The translations under genes were made by a program, and so were the position numbers. A DNA stretch of 6,285 nucleotides from a virus. Lineage: Duplodnaviria > Heunggongvirae > Uroviricota > Caudoviricetes. The stretch lies in IMG/VR virus record IMGVR_UViG_2778261122_000006, positions 1-6,285 of that record; one strand, given 5' to 3'. The number at the start of each line of letters is the position of its first letter. Position 1 is the stretch's first letter. The notes under the pieces are model-generated. The model was not told the DNA's origin, made no database searches, and saw only the letters and a program-made list of their open reading frames with translations. Shown in pieces: positions 1 to 6,285 of this stretch.

Positions 1-369
1 ATGTCAAACATCAAAAAATACATCATTGATTACGACTGGAAAGCATCAATAGAAATTGAAATCGACCATGACGTAATGACAGAGGAAAAACTTCACCAGA
101 TTAATAATTTCTGGTCAGACTCTGAATACCGACTCAATAAACACGGCTCTGTATTAAATGCTGTATTAATCATGCTGGCGCAACATGCTCTGCTTATAGC
201 AATTTCAAGCGACTTAAATGCATATGGTGTTGTGTGTGAGTTCGACTGGAATGATGGAAATGGTCAGGAAGGATGGCCTCCAATGGATGGTAGTGAAGGA
301 ATAAGAATTACCGATATCGATACATCAGGAATATTTGATTCAGATGATATGACTATCAAGGCCGCCTGA
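1..369 (+). CDS. ea10: Ea10-like early-left operon protein (122 aa)
   Basis: ORF-track ORF, ATG 1-3, stop TGA 367-369. Protein MSNIKKYIIDYDWK... matches my recollection of lambda Ea10 (122 aa) and lies directly upstream of cIII as in lambda. Confidence 0.8.
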   Translation: MSNIKKYIIDYDWKASIEIEIDHDVMTEEKLHQINNFWSDSEYRLNKHGSVLNAVLIMLAQHALLIAISSDLNAYGVVCEFDWNDGNGQEGWPPMDGSEGIRITDIDTSGIFDSDDMTIKAA

Positions 370-441
370 GCGCGGCGTTACCGCATACCAATTACGCTTC
401 ACTCGAGGCGTTTTTCGTTATGTATAAATAAGGAGCACACC

Positions 442-606
442 ATGCAATATGCCATTGCAGGGTGGCCTGTTGCTGGCTGCCCTTCCGAATCTTTACTTGA
501 ACGAATCACCCGTAAATTACGTGACGGATGGAAACGCCTTATCGACATACTTAATCAGCCAGGAGTCCCAAAAAATGGATCAAACAATTATGGCTATCCA
601 GACTAA
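442..606 (+). CDS. cIII: CIII, lysogeny-promoting inhibitor of FtsH (HflB) protease (54 aa)
   Basis: Not in the ORF track (below length cutoff). ATG 442-444 preceded by AAGGAG at 430-435. My translation: [54 protein letters not shown], stop TAA 604-606; recognisable as lambda CIII. Confidence 0.9.
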   Translation: MQYAIAGWPVAGCPSESLLERITRKLRDGWKRLIDILNQPGVPKNGSNNYGYPD

Positions 607-718
607 ATTCACTATCGCCACTTTTATTGGCGATGAAAAGATGTTTCGTGAGGCCGTCGACGCTTATAAAAAATGGATATTAATACTGAAACTGAGATCA
701 AGCAAAAGCATTCACTAA
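575..718 (+). CDS. kil: Kil, host cell-division inhibitor (47 aa)
   Basis: ATG 575-577 preceded by AGGAG at 561-565. Product [47 protein letters not shown] is the C-terminal 47 aa of ORF-track ORF 449..718, whose upstream extension overlaps cIII and is not believed. Overlaps the cIII 3' end in another frame, as in lambda. Confidence 0.88.
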
Positions 719-793
719 CCCCCTTTCCTGTTTTCCTAATCAGCCTGGCATTTCGCGGGCGATATTTTCACAGCCATTTTCAGGAGTTCAGCC

Positions 794-1090
794 ATGAACG
801 CTTATTACATTCAGGATCGTCTTGAGGCTCAGAGCTGGGCGCGTCACTACCAGCAGATCGCCCGTGAAGAGAAAGAGGCAGAACTGGCAGACGACATGGA
901 AAAAGGCCTGCCCCAGCACCTGTTTGAATCGCTATGCATCGATCATTTGCAACGCCACGGGGCCAGCAAAAAAGCCATTACCCGTGCGTTTGATGACGAT
1001 GTTGAGTTTCAGGAGCGCATGGCAGAACACATCCGGTACATGGTTGAAACTATTGCCCGCCACCAGGTTGATATTGATTCAGAGGTATAA
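794..1090 (+). CDS. gam: Gam (GamS form), RecBCD nuclease inhibitor (98 aa)
   Basis: ORF-track [24 protein letters not shown]..., ATG 794 preceded by CAGGAG at 781-786. Recognised as lambda Gam short form. The upstream GamL extension is in a different frame here (see findings). Confidence 0.93.
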
Positions 1091-1095
1091 AACGG

Positions 1096-1881
1096 ATGAG
1101 TACAGCACTCGCAACGCTGGCAGGGAAGCTGGCTGAACGTGTCGGCATGGATTCTGTCGACCCACAGGAACTGATCACCACTCTTCGCCAGACGGCATTT
1201 AAAGGTGATGCCAGCGATGCGCAGTTCATCGCATTGTTGATCGTCGCCAACCAGTACGGCCTTAATCCGTGGACGAAAGAAATTTACGCCTTCCCTGATA
1301 AGCAGAACGGCATCGTTCCGGTGGTGGGCGTTGATGGCTGGTCCCGCATCATCAATGAAAACCAGCAGTTTGATGGTATGGACTTTGAGCAGGACAATGA
1401 ATCCTGCACATGCCGGATTTACCGCAAGGACCGCAATCATCCGATCTGCGTTACCGAGTGGATGGATGAATGCCGCCGCGAACCATTCAAAACCCGCGAA
1501 GGCAGAGAAATCACGGGGCCGTGGCAGTCGCATCCCAAACGGATGTTACGGCATAAAGCCATGATTCAGTGTGCCCGTCTGGCCTTCGGATTTGCTGGTA
1601 TCTATGACAAGGATGAAGCCGAGCGCATTGTCGAAAATACCGCATACACCGCAGAACGTCAGCCGGAACGCGACATCACTCCGGTTAACGATGAAACCAT
1701 GCAGGAGATTAACACTCTGCTGATTGCCCTGGACAAAACATGGGATGACGACTTATTGCCGCTCTGTTCCCAGATATTTCGCCGCGACATTCGCGCATCG
1801 TCAGAACTGACACAGGCCGAAGCAGTGAAAGCTCTTGGATTCCTGAAACAGAAAGCCACTGAGCAGAAGGTGGCAGCATGA
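1096..1881 (+). CDS. bet: Bet (Red-beta) single-strand annealing recombinase (261 aa)
   Basis: ORF-track [41 protein letters not shown]..., 261 aa; recognised as lambda Red-beta. Stop overlaps the exo start (ATGA). Confidence 0.97.
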
Positions 1882-2558
1882 CACCGGACATTATCCTGCA
1901 GCGTACCGGGATCGACGTGAGAGCTGTCGAACAGGGGGATGATGCATGGCACAAATTACGGCTCGGCGTCATCACCGCTTCAGAAGTTCACAACGTGATA
2001 GCAAAGCCCCGCTCAGGAAAGAAGTGGCCTGACATGAAAATGTCCTACTTCCACACCCTGCTGGCTGAGGTTTGCACCGGTGTGGCCCCGGAAGTTAATG
2101 CTAAGGCGCTGGCATGGGGAAAACAGTACGAGAACGACGCCAGAACCCTGTTTGAATTCACTTCCGGCGTGAATGTTACTGAATCCCCGATCATCTATCG
2201 CGACGAAAGTATGCGCACCGCCTGCTCTCCCGATGGTTTATGCAGTGACGGCAATGGCCTTGAGCTGAAATGCCCGTTTACCTCCCGGGATTTCATGAAG
2301 TTCCGGCTCGGTGGTTTCGAGGCCATAAAGTCGGCTTACATGGCCCAGGTGCAGTACAGCATGTGGGTGACACGAAAAGATGCCTGGTACTTTGCCAACT
2401 ATGACCCGCGTATGAAGCGTGAAGGACTGCATTATGTCGTGGTTGAGCGGGATGAAAAGTACATGGCGAGTTTTGACGAGATGGTGCCGGAGTTCATCGA
2501 AAAAATGGACGAGGCACTGGCTGAAATTGGTTTTGTATTTGGGGAGCAATGGCGATGA
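1878..2558 (+). CDS. exo: Exo (Red-alpha) 5'-3' dsDNA exonuclease (226 aa)
   Basis: ORF-track [50 protein letters not shown]..., 226 aa; recognised as lambda exonuclease. Start overlaps the bet stop by 4 nt. Confidence 0.97.
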
Positions 2559-2737
2559 AGCATCCTCACGATAATATCCGGGTAGGCGCGATCACTTTCG
2601 TCTACTCCGTTACAAAGCGAGGCTGGGTATTTCCCGGCCTTTCTGTTATCCGAAATCCCCTGAAAGCACAGCGGCTGGCTGAGGAGATAAATAATAAACG
2701 GGGAGCTGTATGCACAAAGCATCTCCCGTTGAGTTAA
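2555..2737 (+). CDS. Small early-left hypothetical protein, lambda orf60a-like (60 aa)
   Basis: ORF-track ORF 2549..2737 ([21 protein letters not shown]...). The third codon, ATG 2555-2557, has GGGGAG (2541-2546) at about 8-nt spacing and gives exactly 60 aa, so I place the start at 2555. Overlaps the exo stop. Confidence 0.7.
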
Positions 2738-2901
2738 GAACGAGTATCGAGATGGCACATAGCCTCGCTCAAATTGGAGTCAGGTTTGTGCCAATTCCAG
2801 TAGAAACAGACGAAGAATTTCATACGTTAGCCGCATCCCTTTCACAAAAGCTGGAAATGATGGTGGCGAAAGCAGAAGCAGATGAGAGAGACCAGGTATG
2901 A
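2710..2901 (+). CDS. Small early-left hypothetical protein, lambda orf63-like (63 aa)
   Basis: ORF-track [66 protein letters not shown], 63 aa, GGGAG at 2701-2705. Overlaps the 3' end of the preceding ORF by 28 nt in another frame. Confidence 0.7.
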   Translation: MHKASPVELRTSIEMAHSLAQIGVRFVPIPVETDEEFHTLAASLSQKLEMMVAKAEADERDQV

Positions 2902-2977
2902 CAACCACTGAATGCATTTTTCTGGCAGCGGGCTTCATATTCTGTGTGCTTATGCTTGCCGACATGGGACTTGTTCA

Positions 2978-3193
2978 ATGACACCTCAGCAAGAAAACGC
3001 CCTTCGCAGTATTGCCCGTCAGGCTAATTCTGAAATCAAAAAAGCCAGACAGCAGTTTCCGGATAAAAACGTCGATGACATTTGCCGTAGCGTACTGAAG
3101 AAGCACCGCGAAACGGTAACGCTGATGGGATTCACACCGACTCACTTAAGTCTGGCAATTGGCATGTTAAACGGCGTTTTTAAGGAACGGTGA
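2978..3193 (+). CDS. Hypothetical protein (71 aa)
   Basis: ORF-track ORF 2912..3193. The internal ATG at 2978 (MTPQQENALRSIARQANSEIKKARQQFPDK...) is my preferred start because the N-terminal 22 codons from 2912 have no RBS and read as non-protein-like (MHFSGSGLHILCAYACRHGTCS). Function unknown; start uncertain. Confidence 0.55.
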   Translation: MTPQQENALRSIARQANSEIKKARQQFPDKNVDDICRSVLKKHRETVTLMGFTPTHLSLAIGMLNGVFKER

Positions 3194-3213
3194 ACATGAA
3201 AAGCAAAATCATC

Positions 3214-3236
3214 AGGGAGCTACAGGCTCCTTTTTT
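3214..3236 (+). terminator. Candidate intrinsic terminator after the 71-aa ORF
   Basis: GGAGC (3216-3220), loop TACAG, GCTCC (3226-3230), then TTTTTT (3231-3236). Short GC stem plus T-run, 23 nt after the stop at 3193. Confidence 0.45.
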
Positions 3237-3291
3237 ATTATTCGCATTCACCCTCAAGCGTATTAACCAACAATTCAGGGATTAATGAAAG

Positions 3292-3513
3292 ATGGCAGAC
3301 ATCATTGATTCAGCATCAGAAATTGAAGAATTACAGCGCAACACAGCAATAAAAATGCGCCGCCTGAACCACCAGGCTGTATCTACCACTCATTGTTGTG
3401 AGTGTGGCGATCCGATAGATGAACGAAGACGACTGGCCGTTCAGGGTTGTCGGACTTGTGCCAGTTGCCAGCAAGATCTGGAGCTTATCAGTAAACAGAG
3501 AGGTTCGAAGTGA
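3292..3513 (+). CDS. TraR/DksA-family C4 zinc-finger protein (73 aa), likely RNA-polymerase secondary-channel regulator
   Basis: ORF-track ORF MADIIDSASEIEELQRNTAIKMRRLNHQAVSTTHCCECGDPIDERRRLAVQGCRTCASCQQDLELISKQRGSK. Cys35-x2-Cys38-x17-Cys56-x2-Cys59 matches the DksA/TraR C4 spacing; size is typical of phage and plasmid TraR-like proteins. Confidence 0.75.
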   Translation: MADIIDSASEIEELQRNTAIKMRRLNHQAVSTTHCCECGDPIDERRRLAVQGCRTCASCQQDLELISKQRGSK

Positions 3514-3665
3514 GCGAAATTAACTAGAAGCCAAAGATAAAATCATCGCTGAGCAGGAGAAAATCGCTAACGGAGAAAAGACAGTAAGTCAGTATATGAA
3601 AACCGCATGATATCATCAGATAAAAATCGGTCGTAAAGCGAAATATTAATACCAGAATAAACGAG

Positions 3666-3689
3666 TCGAGGTAAATTATATTACCTCGA
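3666..3689 (-). terminator. Perfect 9-bp inverted repeat between convergent genes; candidate terminator for the reverse-strand membrane gene
   Basis: TCGAGGTAA (3666-3674), loop ATTATA, TTACCTCGA (3681-3689). Lies 35 nt beyond the reverse-strand stop at 3724-3726; the reverse-strand RNA downstream is moderately U-rich (CUCGUUUAUUCUGG). No T-run on the + strand. Confidence 0.4.
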
Positions 3690-3723
3690 TAAATTAACTA
3701 AAACTTGCCCGCTATATACTATC

Positions 3724-4302
3724 TCATTCAGTATCATCACGCGCGGTCTGTGCATATGTCACTACCGCACCTAATGTATTAATTTTCTTTTCAACATAGA
3801 TAATATTATCGTACTCATAATTGCCATACGGATAGCAAATGCGAATATTCTCATGTAGATCGGGGTCATCCACCTCAGCTCCAGAACAACTTTTTGAACT
3901 ACCGGAAGTATACCGATACGGTGCAACATAAGACGATGTCTCTCCAGGCAAAAAATAAGTTAGTGTTGTAAGGGGTATAATCAGAAAAAATCCAGAAAAT
4001 ATGCATATCCCTGCATAAACCTTAAGGTATGCTGACAGACTCTTCCAGCCGCTTTGTTTTACTATCCCCTTCTTAACCCAAAACAGAGATAACAGAAAAG
4101 CTATTCCCATGCTAAACAGAATGTAATAGTGGGATATACTCTGATTAAGAAACGTGACCCTGTAGATATCTGCCCGCCACCAGAAGAAAAGGAAAATAAA
4201 GATCAGCCCTGAAACTGTCATGCAAATCAAATAAGGATACGAATCTTTTTTCATGTTTAGCGCCCATAAAATTTTTCCTGCCCGGACAAATTTACCATCC
4301 AT
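3724..4302 (-). CDS. AT-rich accessory (moron) integral membrane protein, three predicted TM helices plus acidic C-terminal domain; function unknown
   Basis: ORF-track reverse ORF 3724..4347, whose first codon is GTG. ATG candidates are at 4302 (MDGKFVRAGK...), 4254 (MKKDSYPY...) and 4221; none has a strong SD, so the start is uncertain. Hydrophobic segments LICMTVSGLIFIFLFFWW, YYILFSMGIAFLLSLFWV and VYAGICIFSGFFLIIPLTTLTYFL, with Lys-rich loops. GC is about one-third by eye, versus over 50 percent in flanking genes. Confidence 0.7.
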   Translation of the reverse strand: MDGKFVRAGKILWALNMKKDSYPYLICMTVSGLIFIFLFFWWRADIYRVTFLNQSISHYYILFSMGIAFLLSLFWVKKGIVKQSGWKSLSAYLKVYAGICIFSGFFLIIPLTTLTYFLPGETSSYVAPYRYTSGSSKSCSGAEVDDPDLHENIRICYPYGNYEYDNIIYVEKKINTLGAVVTYAQTARDDTE

Positions 4303-4528
4303 TTTTTGCGCAGAAAATAGCTCATTACTTACTGCACAATAATACACAAAATTGCGTAAATTTTTTGCATGGATTTTAGCTCTTTCAGCCGACGTTTAAG
4401 GGGTAAAGAGCATTTCCTAAAAGCAACTGACCAACCCAACAGAATGGGCTACCGCTTACGTTGAGAGCAAAAAAGTGTATAGCAGCAATGAACAGCATCC
4501 TCGCACTGACGGGGATTTCTTTTATCTG

Positions 4529-4553
4529 AGCTCGCTACGGCGAGTTTTGTTTT
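4529..4553 (+). terminator. Candidate intrinsic terminator or attenuator immediately upstream of the 114-aa gene
   Basis: CTCGC (4531-4535), loop TACG, GCGAG (4540-4544), then TTTTGTTTTA (4545-4554). The T-run is on the + strand only and runs into the GGAGA RBS of the ORF starting at 4567. Confidence 0.4.
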
Positions 4554-4566
4554 ATGGAGACAAGAA

Positions 4567-4911
4567 ATGTCAGATTTGGCTATGAAGGTTTTGAAATGGC
4601 AATCAACTGGCGATGTCGGCATCAGTAGCGCAACTCTTGCCTCAATCGCATGTGGCCTGAAAAAGAATATCTATGGTCATCACTTCGGCGCTCCCCATGA
4701 CGCAGCAGACTTTCGGCGATGCGTTGCACTTGTTGAGCAGATTCCAGAAATCAGAGATTCATTCGACAAGGTTGCAAAGCGCGTTCCGGCATTCAAAGGA
4801 ATCCTCAACGAATGGGATTCACTCGTTGCTCTGTTGAAGTCTGAAATGAAGACGTACGGGAACAAAGCACCAGAGACTTACAGAAGAATCAGCGAGCTAC
4901 GCAAGGACTAA
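4567..4911 (+). CDS. Hypothetical protein (114 aa), accessory gene upstream of xis
   Basis: ORF-track ORF MSDLAMKVLKWQSTGDVGISSATLASIACGLKKNIYGHHFGAPHDAADFRRC..., GGAGA (4556-4560) 6 nt before ATG 4567, stop TAA 4909-4911. No TM segments and no family I can name. Occupies the position taken by ea8.5 in lambda but is not that protein by length. Confidence 0.75.
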   Translation: MSDLAMKVLKWQSTGDVGISSATLASIACGLKKNIYGHHFGAPHDAADFRRCVALVEQIPEIRDSFDKVAKRVPAFKGILNEWDSLVALLKSEMKTYGNKAPETYRRISELRKD

Positions 4912-4967
4912 CCCGCCTCACACTCGATGAGGCCTGTTCATTTCTCAAGATATCCAGACCTACCATC

Positions 4968-4991
4968 GCCGCATCAATGCGGCTTTTTCTT
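4968..4991 (+). terminator. Intrinsic terminator upstream of xis
   Basis: Perfect 6-bp stem GCCGCA (4968-4973), loop TCAA, TGCGGC (4978-4983), then TTTTTCTT (4984-4991). Textbook hairpin plus T-run. Confidence 0.6.
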
Positions 4992-5003
4992 GCGTGTAAT
5001 TGC
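4990..5003 (+). promoter_or_regulatory. CII-binding site TTGC-N6-TTGC of a pI-type (int) promoter
   Basis: TTGC (4990-4993), GTGTAA, TTGC (5000-5003): the direct-repeat motif recognised by lambda CII, positioned over the xis start region as at lambda pI. The -10 and transcription start could not be confidently assigned by eye. Confidence 0.65.
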
Positions 5004-5015
5004 GGAGACTTTGCG

Positions 5016-5234
5016 ATGTACTTGACACTTCAGGAGTGGAACGCACGCCAGCGACGCCCAAGAAGCCTTGAAACAGTTCGTCGATGGGTACGCGAGTGCA
5101 GGATATTCCCTCCTCCGGTTAAGGATGGAAGAGAGTATCTGTTCCACGAATCAGCGGTAAAGGTTGACTTAAATCGACCAGTAACAGGTAGCCTTTTGAA
5201 GAGGATCAGAAATGGGAAGAAGGCGAAGTCATGA
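5016..5234 (+). CDS. xis: Excisionase Xis (72 aa)
   Basis: MYLTLQEWNARQRRPRSLETVRRWVRECRIFPPPVKDGREYLFHESAVKVDLNRPVTGSLLKRIRNGKKAKS is recognisable as lambda-type Xis. GGAG (5004-5007) precedes ATG 5016. The ORF-track start at 4977 lies inside the upstream terminator hairpin and is rejected. The 3' end overlaps the int start by 23 nt. Confidence 0.93.
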   Translation: MYLTLQEWNARQRRPRSLETVRRWVRECRIFPPPVKDGREYLFHESAVKVDLNRPVTGSLLKRIRNGKKAKS

Positions 5235-6285
5235 GCGCCGGGATTTACCCCCTAACCTTTATATAAGAAACAATGGATATTACTGCTACAGGGACCCAAG
5301 GACGGGTAAAGAGTTCGGATTAGGCAGAGACAGAAGGATAGCAGTTTCAGAGGCTATTCAGGCCAATATTGAGTTGCTATCTGAGAACAGGCGTGAGTCA
5401 CTGATAGACAGGATTAAAGGCGCTGACGCAATCACTCTTCATGTGTGGCTTGACCGATATGAAACAATTCTCAGCGAGAGGGGCATCAGACCGAAAACTC
5501 TACTCGACTACGCCAGCAAAATCAGGGCAATCCGAAGAAAATTGCCGGACAAACCGCTCACTGACATATCAACGAAAGAGGTGGCTGCAATGCTAAACAC
5601 CTACGTAGCAGAAGGTAAAGCGGCTTCCGCAAAATTAATCAGGTCAACCCTTGTTGACGTTTTTCGTGAGGCAATAGCCGAGGGGCATGTGGCAACGAAT
5701 CCGGTAACAGCAACCCGCACAGCAAAATCAGAAGTAAGGCGTTCAAGACTGACAGCTAATGAATATGTCGCGATTTACCATGCAGCCGAACCGCTCCCAA
5801 TCTGGCTGAGGCTGGCAATGGATTTGGCTGTCGTTACAGGGCAGAGAGTAGGCGATTTATGCAGAATGAAATGGTCAGACATAAACGACAACCATCTTCA
5901 CATTGAGCAGGGTAAAACAGGGGCTAAGCTCGCCATTCCGCTGATGCTAACGATTGACGCGCTCAATATCTCATTGGCTGATACACTACAGAAATGCAGG
6001 GAGGCCAGCGGCAGTGAAACTATAATCGCATCAAAGCATCACGATCCGCTTTCCCCGAAAACAGTATCGAAGTATTTTACAAAGGCGAGAAATGCATCTG
6101 GACTCTCATTTGATGGAGACCCGCCAACATTCCATGAACTGCGTAGCCTGTCAGCGAGGCTATACCGAAACCAGATTGGCGATAAGTTTGCTCAACGTCT
6201 TCTCGGGCATAAATCAGATTCAATGGCGGCGCGGTATAGGGACAGCCGTGGACGGGAATGGGACAAAATTGAAATCGACAAATGA
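5212..6285 (+). CDS. int: Lambda-family tyrosine integrase Int (357 aa)
   Basis: ORF-track ORF MGRRRSHERRDLPPNLYIRNNGYYCYRDPRTGKEFGLGRDRR... with the lambda Int arm-binding N-terminus. Catalytic-motif contexts are present: GQRVGDLC (Arg), HELRSLSARLY (His/Arg), LLGHKSDSMAARYRD (His and the Tyr nucleophile). Stop is the last codon of the window. Confidence 0.97.
   Translation: MGRRRSHERRDLPPNLYIRNNGYYCYRDPRTGKEFGLGRDRRIAVSEAIQANIELLSENRRESLIDRIKGADAITLHVWLDRYETILSERGIRPKTLLDYASKIRAIRRKLPDKPLTDISTKEVAAMLNTYVAEGKAASAKLIRSTLVDVFREAIAEGHVATNPVTATRTAKSEVRRSRLTANEYVAIYHAAEPLPIWLRLAMDLAVVTGQRVGDLCRMKWSDINDNHLHIEQGKTGAKLAIPLMLTIDALNISLADTLQKCREASGSETIIASKHHDPLSPKTVSKYFTKARNASGLSFDGDPPTFHELRSLSARLYRNQIGDKFAQRLLGHKSDSMAARYRDSRGREWDKIEIDK

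Follow-up and report, generated by a model that had tools for sequence, protein, structure and literature searches.

A common four-T haplotype of the kil-gam junction splits the GamL reading frame from gam in a lambda-like phage

Introduction

Bacteriophage lambda (J02459/NC_001416) carries gam at complement 32816..33232. Its long product GamL consists of 138 aa, and the short product GamS corresponds to residues 41-138. [quoted passage not shown] Both GamL and GamS were active when expressed and both potentiated quinolones, with a slight difference between the two in fluoroquinolone potentiation in Klebsiella, and GamS is the structurally characterised form (PMC5218532).

The run of T upstream of gam holds three T in lambda, and the same three-T allele is found in phage 434 (OL657226), in which GamL is open and yet only the 98-aa gene is annotated, with its own ribosome-binding site. 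Four T are found in 933W (AF125520), Stx2-converting phage 86 (AB255436) and Chlobot (PP925838), which share an arrangement of a 50-codon and a 98-codon ORF. In 933W gam is annotated as 98 aa, and in phage 86 both pieces are annotated as 'gam'. A literature search found no paper on this natural three-T/four-T polymorphism of gam. The 'GamL' of a 2025 Genome Research paper was considered as the long lambda isoform and rejected, as it is an unrelated Gam-like protein of phi80.

Here we describe the kil-gam junction in a 6,285-base stretch of DNA (IMG/VR record IMGVR_UViG_2778261122_000006, positions 1 to 6,285), hereafter the window. The junction is of the four-T type. Compared with lambda, the position in the kil-gam-bet operon, the Shine-Dalgarno sequence and the ATG of gam were alike and the GamS body was nearly identical. 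Chlobot was the best match over positions 560-1100 of the window (99.1%), followed by 933W and phage 86 (98.2-98.3%); these three phages differed from the window by scattered point differences in the flanks, and the remainder of their genomes was mosaic.

Results and Discussion

Gene organization of the window

The window comprised the leftward early (pL) operon and the recombination region, written in the direction of pL transcription, with the gene order ea10, cIII, kil, gam, bet, exo ... xis, int (Table 1). Its source is a lambda-like phage or prophage, one more mosaic lambdoid. The best match of the whole window among phage records was phage 434, with 93.5% over 100% (6.3 kb) in length and with its genes in the same order, and lambda covered 77% of the window at 91.7%. 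None of the complete E. coli genomes had the exact window, the top match being 97.4%. The gene gam was located directly upstream of bet and exo in the pL operon, with matching annotations in lambda, 933W and 434. The length and position of kil were the same as those of lambda kil (33187..33330), and the last 46 nt of kil overlapped the 50-codon ORF in another frame.

Table 1. Features of the window around the kil-gam junction and in the flanking operon
Feature	Position	Strand	Evidence or remark
ea10/ssb	1-369		ORF list
Rfam Lambda_thermo RF01804, cIII mRNA thermoregulator	429-487	+	88.5 bits (gathering score 50); covers the cIII start
cIII	442-606		ORF list
kil, 47 aa + stop	575..718	+	Pfam Lambda_Kil PF06301, E 3e-19
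50-codon ORF, GamL N-terminal 33 residues + 17 out-of-frame residues	673..825	+	ORF list
kil-gam spacer, 75 nt (74 in lambda)	719..793	+	kept also in loci with an upstream gene other than lambda kil
Terminator-like hairpin GCCTG-8 nt-CGGGC (743-760) followed by GATATTTTCA	743..770	+	consensus scan, weak evidence
Haplotype-defining site, C775 + T-run 777-780 (CATTTT; TATTT in lambda)	775..780	+	alignments
Shine-Dalgarno AGGAG of gam, 7 nt before ATG 794	782..786	+	sequence
gam, GamS form, 98 aa + stop, RecBCD inhibitor (predicted)	794..1090	+	Pfam PF06064, PDB matches
bet	1096-1881		ORF list
exo	1878-2558		ORF list
Several small exo-xis region genes, xis, then integrase reaching the window end			ORF list

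The small genes of the exo-xis region included those for a DksA/TraR-type C4 zinc-finger protein of 73 aa (3292-3513, plus strand), DUF1317 (2549-2737, plus strand) and DUF1382 (2710-2901, plus strand). A low-GC island was also present at approximately 3600-4500, where the GC content was 0.37-0.40 compared with approximately 0.52 in bet/exo. It contained an ORF on the opposite strand (3724-4347) for a hydrophobic protein of 207 aa without a Pfam family, and the neighbouring ORF for 114 aa (4567-4911, plus strand) likewise had no Pfam family. The low-GC island with the ORF 3724-4347 resembles an insertion of the moron type within the exo-xis region.

One indel separates the GamL extension from gam

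The ORF starting at ATG 673 encoded 50 aa and terminated at TGA 823-825, and the Gam body of 98 aa, with the C-terminal end ...DIDSEV, started at ATG 794 in the other frame. An earlier note made from the sequence had described both ORFs in this way, and the sequence and the ORF list agreed with it. As the two ATG codons were 121 nt apart (121 mod 3 = 1), the frames differed and a contiguous 138-aa GamL ORF was absent; no upstream ATG in frame with the Gam body and free of an intervening stop was found in the window. In lambda, by contrast, 120 nt separate the two ATG codons, and the upstream one is in frame.

The alignment with lambda J02459 contained exactly one indel within 650-830, located in the T-run, by which the frame arrangement differed from that of lambda. 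The aligned context was ...CACAGCTA-TTTCAGGAG... in lambda (ungapped CACAGCTATTTCAGGAG) and ...CACAGCCATTTTCAGGAG... in the window, and the junction letters were AGCTATTTCAGG in lambda versus AGCCATTTTCAGG in the window. The run consisted of four T at 777-780 in the window and three in lambda. The earlier proposal of a single extra T at about 776-780 was thus correct as to the one extra T when compared with lambda, but its range was one base too wide. The extra T had been placed just upstream of the ribosome-binding site of GamS, and indeed the run ended one base before the AGGAG sequence, which is annotated as the gam ribosome-binding site in phage 434. The alignment also found a substitution at 775, C in the window and T in lambda, which was absent from the earlier description.

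The four-T allele is a common haplotype

Among complete E. coli genomes, 1,997 records had the exact four-T 57-mer as their top match, compared with 784 for the exact three-T 56-mer. In phage records, the exact four-T and three-T sequences were each found 86 times. Exact-pattern scans of IMG/VR returned at least about 120 loci per allele, in which the class proportions do not represent population frequencies. The exact 50-aa product occurred on 976 public contigs, usually under the name 'host-nuclease inhibitor protein Gam', and the exact GamS sequence on at least 1000. C775 was linked with four T, and T at this position with three T, in all 243 anchor-sequence matches listed (IMG/VR loci and four phage records), among which no recombinant type at 775/T-run was detected. 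These results demonstrated that the window carries the commoner of two long-standing haplotypes among E. coli genomes, and reference lambda the rarer one. The term 'disrupted', applied to the GamL frame in the earlier note, overstated the case, as the four-T form makes up the majority in E. coli genomes. The GamS-only four-T haplotype is already known and common; GenBank has contained it from 933W onwards, and many records annotate it.

The GamS-body diversity was 6.2 and 6.25 nt within the three-T and four-T classes and 6.35 nt between them, and identical GamS haplotypes were found with both alleles. The three-T/four-T site has the behaviour expected of a polymorphism in a pool that recombines. 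Because the diversity did not differ and GamS haplotypes were shared, the direction of change was unreadable from linkage; the use of GamS-body diversity for polarity was rejected, as the same diversity within and between classes showed recombination only. An insertion in the four-T haplotype is weakly favoured as the direction of change, because relatives at 71-82% identity mostly read A-TTT-CAGGAG.

The 98-residue GamS as the product of gam

The window Gam aligned to the Pfam family Gam (PF06064) with residues 1-98 on positions 1-98 of the 98-position model (216.7 bits with a cut-off of 25, E 4e-65). On lambda GamL, the same model aligned to residues 41-138. The PDB entries 5MBV_A and 2UUZ_A matched all 98 residues (E approximately 3e-60), and both 2UUZ and 5MBV, the latter in complex with RecBCD, represent the GamS form. 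GamS is the unit shared throughout the family, and the earlier view of it as the active RecBCD inhibitor fits both the length of the Pfam model and these GamS-form structures. As the window GamS is nearly identical to lambda GamS, it probably acts as an inhibitor of the RecBCD nuclease/helicase.

The statement that only the 98-aa GamS frame is intact was borne out, as GamS had its own ribosome-binding site and a contiguous 138-aa GamL ORF was lacking. In the four-T haplotype, gam would be expressed solely as the 98-residue GamS, with translation expected to start from ATG 794 via the canonical AGGAG and its 7-nt spacer. The locus is very probably explained as a common, GamS-only four-T haplotype of the kil-gam junction, in which the 50-codon ORF is a by-product.

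Architectures of gam loci and the GamL extension

The 244 anchor-sequence matches listed, which consisted of IMG/VR loci, reference phage records and the window, were classified by the arrangement upstream of gam. Three T with lambda kil and an intact 138-aa ORF were found in 90, and one further match of this type was in frame with a nonsense change inside GamS. Four T with lambda kil, having the 50-aa ORF split from gam, accounted for 40. Another 10 (8 three-T, 2 four-T) had a further 1-nt deletion earlier in the extension, resulting in a 21-aa ORF. A different upstream gene without the GamL ATG was present in 74, of which 72 had the 98-aa GamS (65 four-T, 7 three-T) and 2 more four-T loci read a 110-aa GamS. 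The remaining 29 were too near a contig end to score. GamL was hence in frame in some loci only, and split, truncated or absent in others. Of the 109 scorable four-T loci among the matches listed, 67 had no upstream ATG. Among the scorable matches listed, GamS departed from 98 aa in only four, two truncated copies (6 and 40 aa) and the two of 110 aa.

The alternative upstream gene encoded 96 aa and belonged to PHROG_294; it was also labelled 'Kil', being unrelated in sequence to lambda kil. The loci of this type resembled the window in the spacer, the Shine-Dalgarno sequence and the 98-aa gam (four-T in 65 of 72 among the matches listed), but the upstream gene was unrelated and neither the GamL ATG nor the 50-codon ORF was present. 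Their homology to lambda started at the stop codon of the upstream gene (TCACTAA). Examples of gam preceded by PHROG_294 in IMG/VR are L010 (minus strand, 2301-2591) and L017 (7769-8059). In one PHROG_294-type locus the stop was lost, and the upstream ORF read through in frame into GamS.

Seven relatives with 71-77% protein identity, from Citrobacter, Klebsiella, Raoultella, another Escherichia species and others, were all exactly 98 aa in length. All seven had a Shine-Dalgarno sequence before the ATG, in which the CAGGAG/TAGGAG/CAGGAA motif was kept, and their in-frame upstream stretches of 1-38 codons contained no Met.

Given the loci without the GamL ATG, the independent 1-nt deletions, the 98-aa relatives and the 98-position Pfam model, the GamL extension appears dispensable in sequence comparison. 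The 138-residue GamL of lambda occurs only where the three-T haplotype meets lambda-type kil, and it is an optional isoform of some lineages. Extrapolation from the class counts among the matches listed and from the 1,997/784 genome counts suggested that an intact GamL frame persists in roughly one in four E. coli gam loci, whether by neutrality or by selection. The majority of four T, the loci without a GamL start, the independent frameshifts in the extension and the 98-aa distant relatives together suggest that GamS is the RecBCD inhibitor of physiological relevance, and that GamL is probably an accident of the lambda lineage.

The 50-codon ORF and the kil-gam spacer

The earlier note had left the status of the 50-codon overlapping ORF uncertain. 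The ORF itself was confirmed, and it is most likely not a gene. No Shine-Dalgarno sequence preceded ATG 673 in TATAAAAAATG, and searches of the 50-codon ORF in Pfam, NCBIfam and PHROGs returned no family. Most related loci among the matches listed had the frame changed, shortened or missing. Neither a ribosome-binding site of its own, nor a family, nor a frame kept in relatives was thus found for this ORF. ATG 673 is located inside kil, where the Lys-Trp codons AAA-TGG are read one base out of register. As the ATG is dictated by these codons, its conservation is explained by Kil and not by GamL. ATG 673 is probably not used to a meaningful extent, and weak initiation may occur there. The ORF is a composite of three pieces, which are the 3' end of kil in another frame, the 75-nt kil-gam spacer and the first 30 nt of gam out of frame. 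By rough estimate, a 40-codon open stretch with an in-frame ATG arises by chance in 5-10% of random sequence.

The nucleotide diversity at 718-768, which is most of the spacer with pattern-fixed bases excluded, was 0.046 and was dominated by two common polymorphisms. The diversity of GamS was 0.022, 0.019 and 0.048 at the first, second and third codon positions, respectively. The value at 718-768 was thus similar to that of GamS third positions and approximately twofold higher than those of first and second positions, and it looks non-coding. When the GamL frame was considered in the 51-nt window after kil, which contained few sites, the diversity was highest at second positions. In the three-T haplotypes, the 50 nt after kil contained 4 synonymous and 3 non-synonymous variants, also few sites, when approximately 27% synonymous is expected at random. 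GamL may be under some constraint in loci that keep it in frame.

The consensus scan for terminators gave one match, the hairpin at 743-770, with 0.9 expected by chance. A T/C polymorphism at 746 keeps the hairpin pair, which is G-U in the window and G-C in lambda. The tL2 terminator cluster of lambda presumably lies between bet and ral, and the hairpin may be one of the tL2 sites. No tL2 terminator feature was annotated in the lambda records, and a literature search for it was likewise without result. The predicted fold of 705-815 was not unusual (z = -0.73), and the Rfam search detected nothing in the kil-gam spacer.

Alternative readings of the locus

The difference from lambda sits in a T-run, where indel errors are common, and a homopolymer sequencing or assembly error in a phage that truly has the in-frame GamL of lambda was therefore considered. 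The identical allele was nevertheless present in the Sanger-era sequences of 933W and Stx2 phage 86, it was the best match in the 1,997 complete E. coli genome records and occurred in 86 phage records, it was always linked with the substitution at 775 with no recombinant among the 243 anchor-sequence matches listed, and the exact 50-aa product was found on 976 contigs. The chance of such an error is negligible. A genuine four-T run might still yield a GamL-like protein if a programmed +1 frameshift or transcriptional slippage in the run rejoined the 673 frame to gam. A +1 slip of tRNA-Phe from UUU (778-780) to UUC (779-781) is chemically possible, and the product would match lambda GamL except for the His/Tyr encoded at 775. 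However, the A-site codon CAG in the context CAU UUU CAG is neither rare nor a stop, and appreciable slippage of the polymerase would need a run longer than four T. In the +1 frameshift of prfB, a Shine-Dalgarno sequence lies approximately 3 nt upstream of the site, whereas the sole such element here is downstream of it. The ordinary fold (z = -0.73) and the lack of an Rfam match in the spacer also spoke against recoding, and neither a slippery motif with a stimulator nor a long homopolymer was found at this site. The 67 of 109 scorable four-T loci listed that lack the upstream ATG moreover showed that the allele is untied to any frameshift product. We regard a rejoining of the two frames as extremely unlikely.

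The 50-codon ORF could alternatively encode a real small protein, or serve as a regulatory upstream ORF whose translation across the gam ribosome-binding site tunes GamS synthesis. It was intact in 40 of the 40 matches listed with four T and kil, it terminates 30 nt inside gam, and it is annotated repeatedly in public records, only by similarity to Gam. Against this, it has no Shine-Dalgarno sequence before an ATG set by the Lys-Trp codons of kil and no family in Pfam, NCBIfam or PHROGs, its C-terminal 17 residues are nonexistent in three-T phages, it was reduced to 21 aa in 10 loci and missing in the 72 with the other upstream gene among the matches listed, and the spacer is as diverse as the third codon positions of GamS. 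Such a role for the ORF is accordingly improbable. The pair of alleles might also constitute a maintained (balanced) polymorphism, which switches a functionally distinct GamL isoform on and off. Both haplotypes were frequent in E. coli genomes and phage records, their GamS backgrounds were indistinguishable (6.35 nt between classes, 6.2 within) with haplotypes shared, and a slight difference between GamL and GamS in fluoroquinolone potentiation in Klebsiella has been reported (PMC5218532). A neutral indel in the spacer would, however, give the same pattern if the gene pool recombines freely, the extension has been lost by several independent routes, and it is missing from all more distant relatives. 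We consider balancing selection very unlikely. A regulatory role of the junction as such, either as an on/off switch for a GamL with its own function or with the 50-codon ORF as an upstream ORF tuning GamS output, has likewise only a slim chance of being correct. If true, a GamL switch could, for example, alter how the phage interacts with host defence systems that detect Gam or are blocked by it.

Under the preferred reading, the common GamS-only haplotype with the 50-codon ORF as a by-product, the 50-aa entries named 'host-nuclease inhibitor protein Gam' represent pieces of an extension that is not conserved, rather than gam pseudogenes in truncated form, and gam in such phages is therefore intact. 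Published annotated phage genomes already contain the allele, as do thousands of E. coli assemblies, and the locus therefore carries little weight as a discovery.

Other gam copies in the searches

On genome contigs of unrelated organisms, including Shewanella, Pseudomonas, Neobacillus, Kitasatospora, Bacillota and others (L245-L259 and L262-L263), gam 95-98% identical to that of the window was found on short or low-coverage contigs. These copies are most likely lambda DNA contamination, and the 95-99% matches on contigs of unrelated organisms were left out of the comparisons. A Gam relative of 82% identity was located at approximately 1440-1790 in L260 (E. coli ECMA0423) and L261 (Shigella flexneri SFBU1023), having no ATG at the aligned start and the upstream sequence CTATTTCAGGAAGGAGTG...; this Gam may use a GTG start, or may be a decayed copy in a defective prophage.
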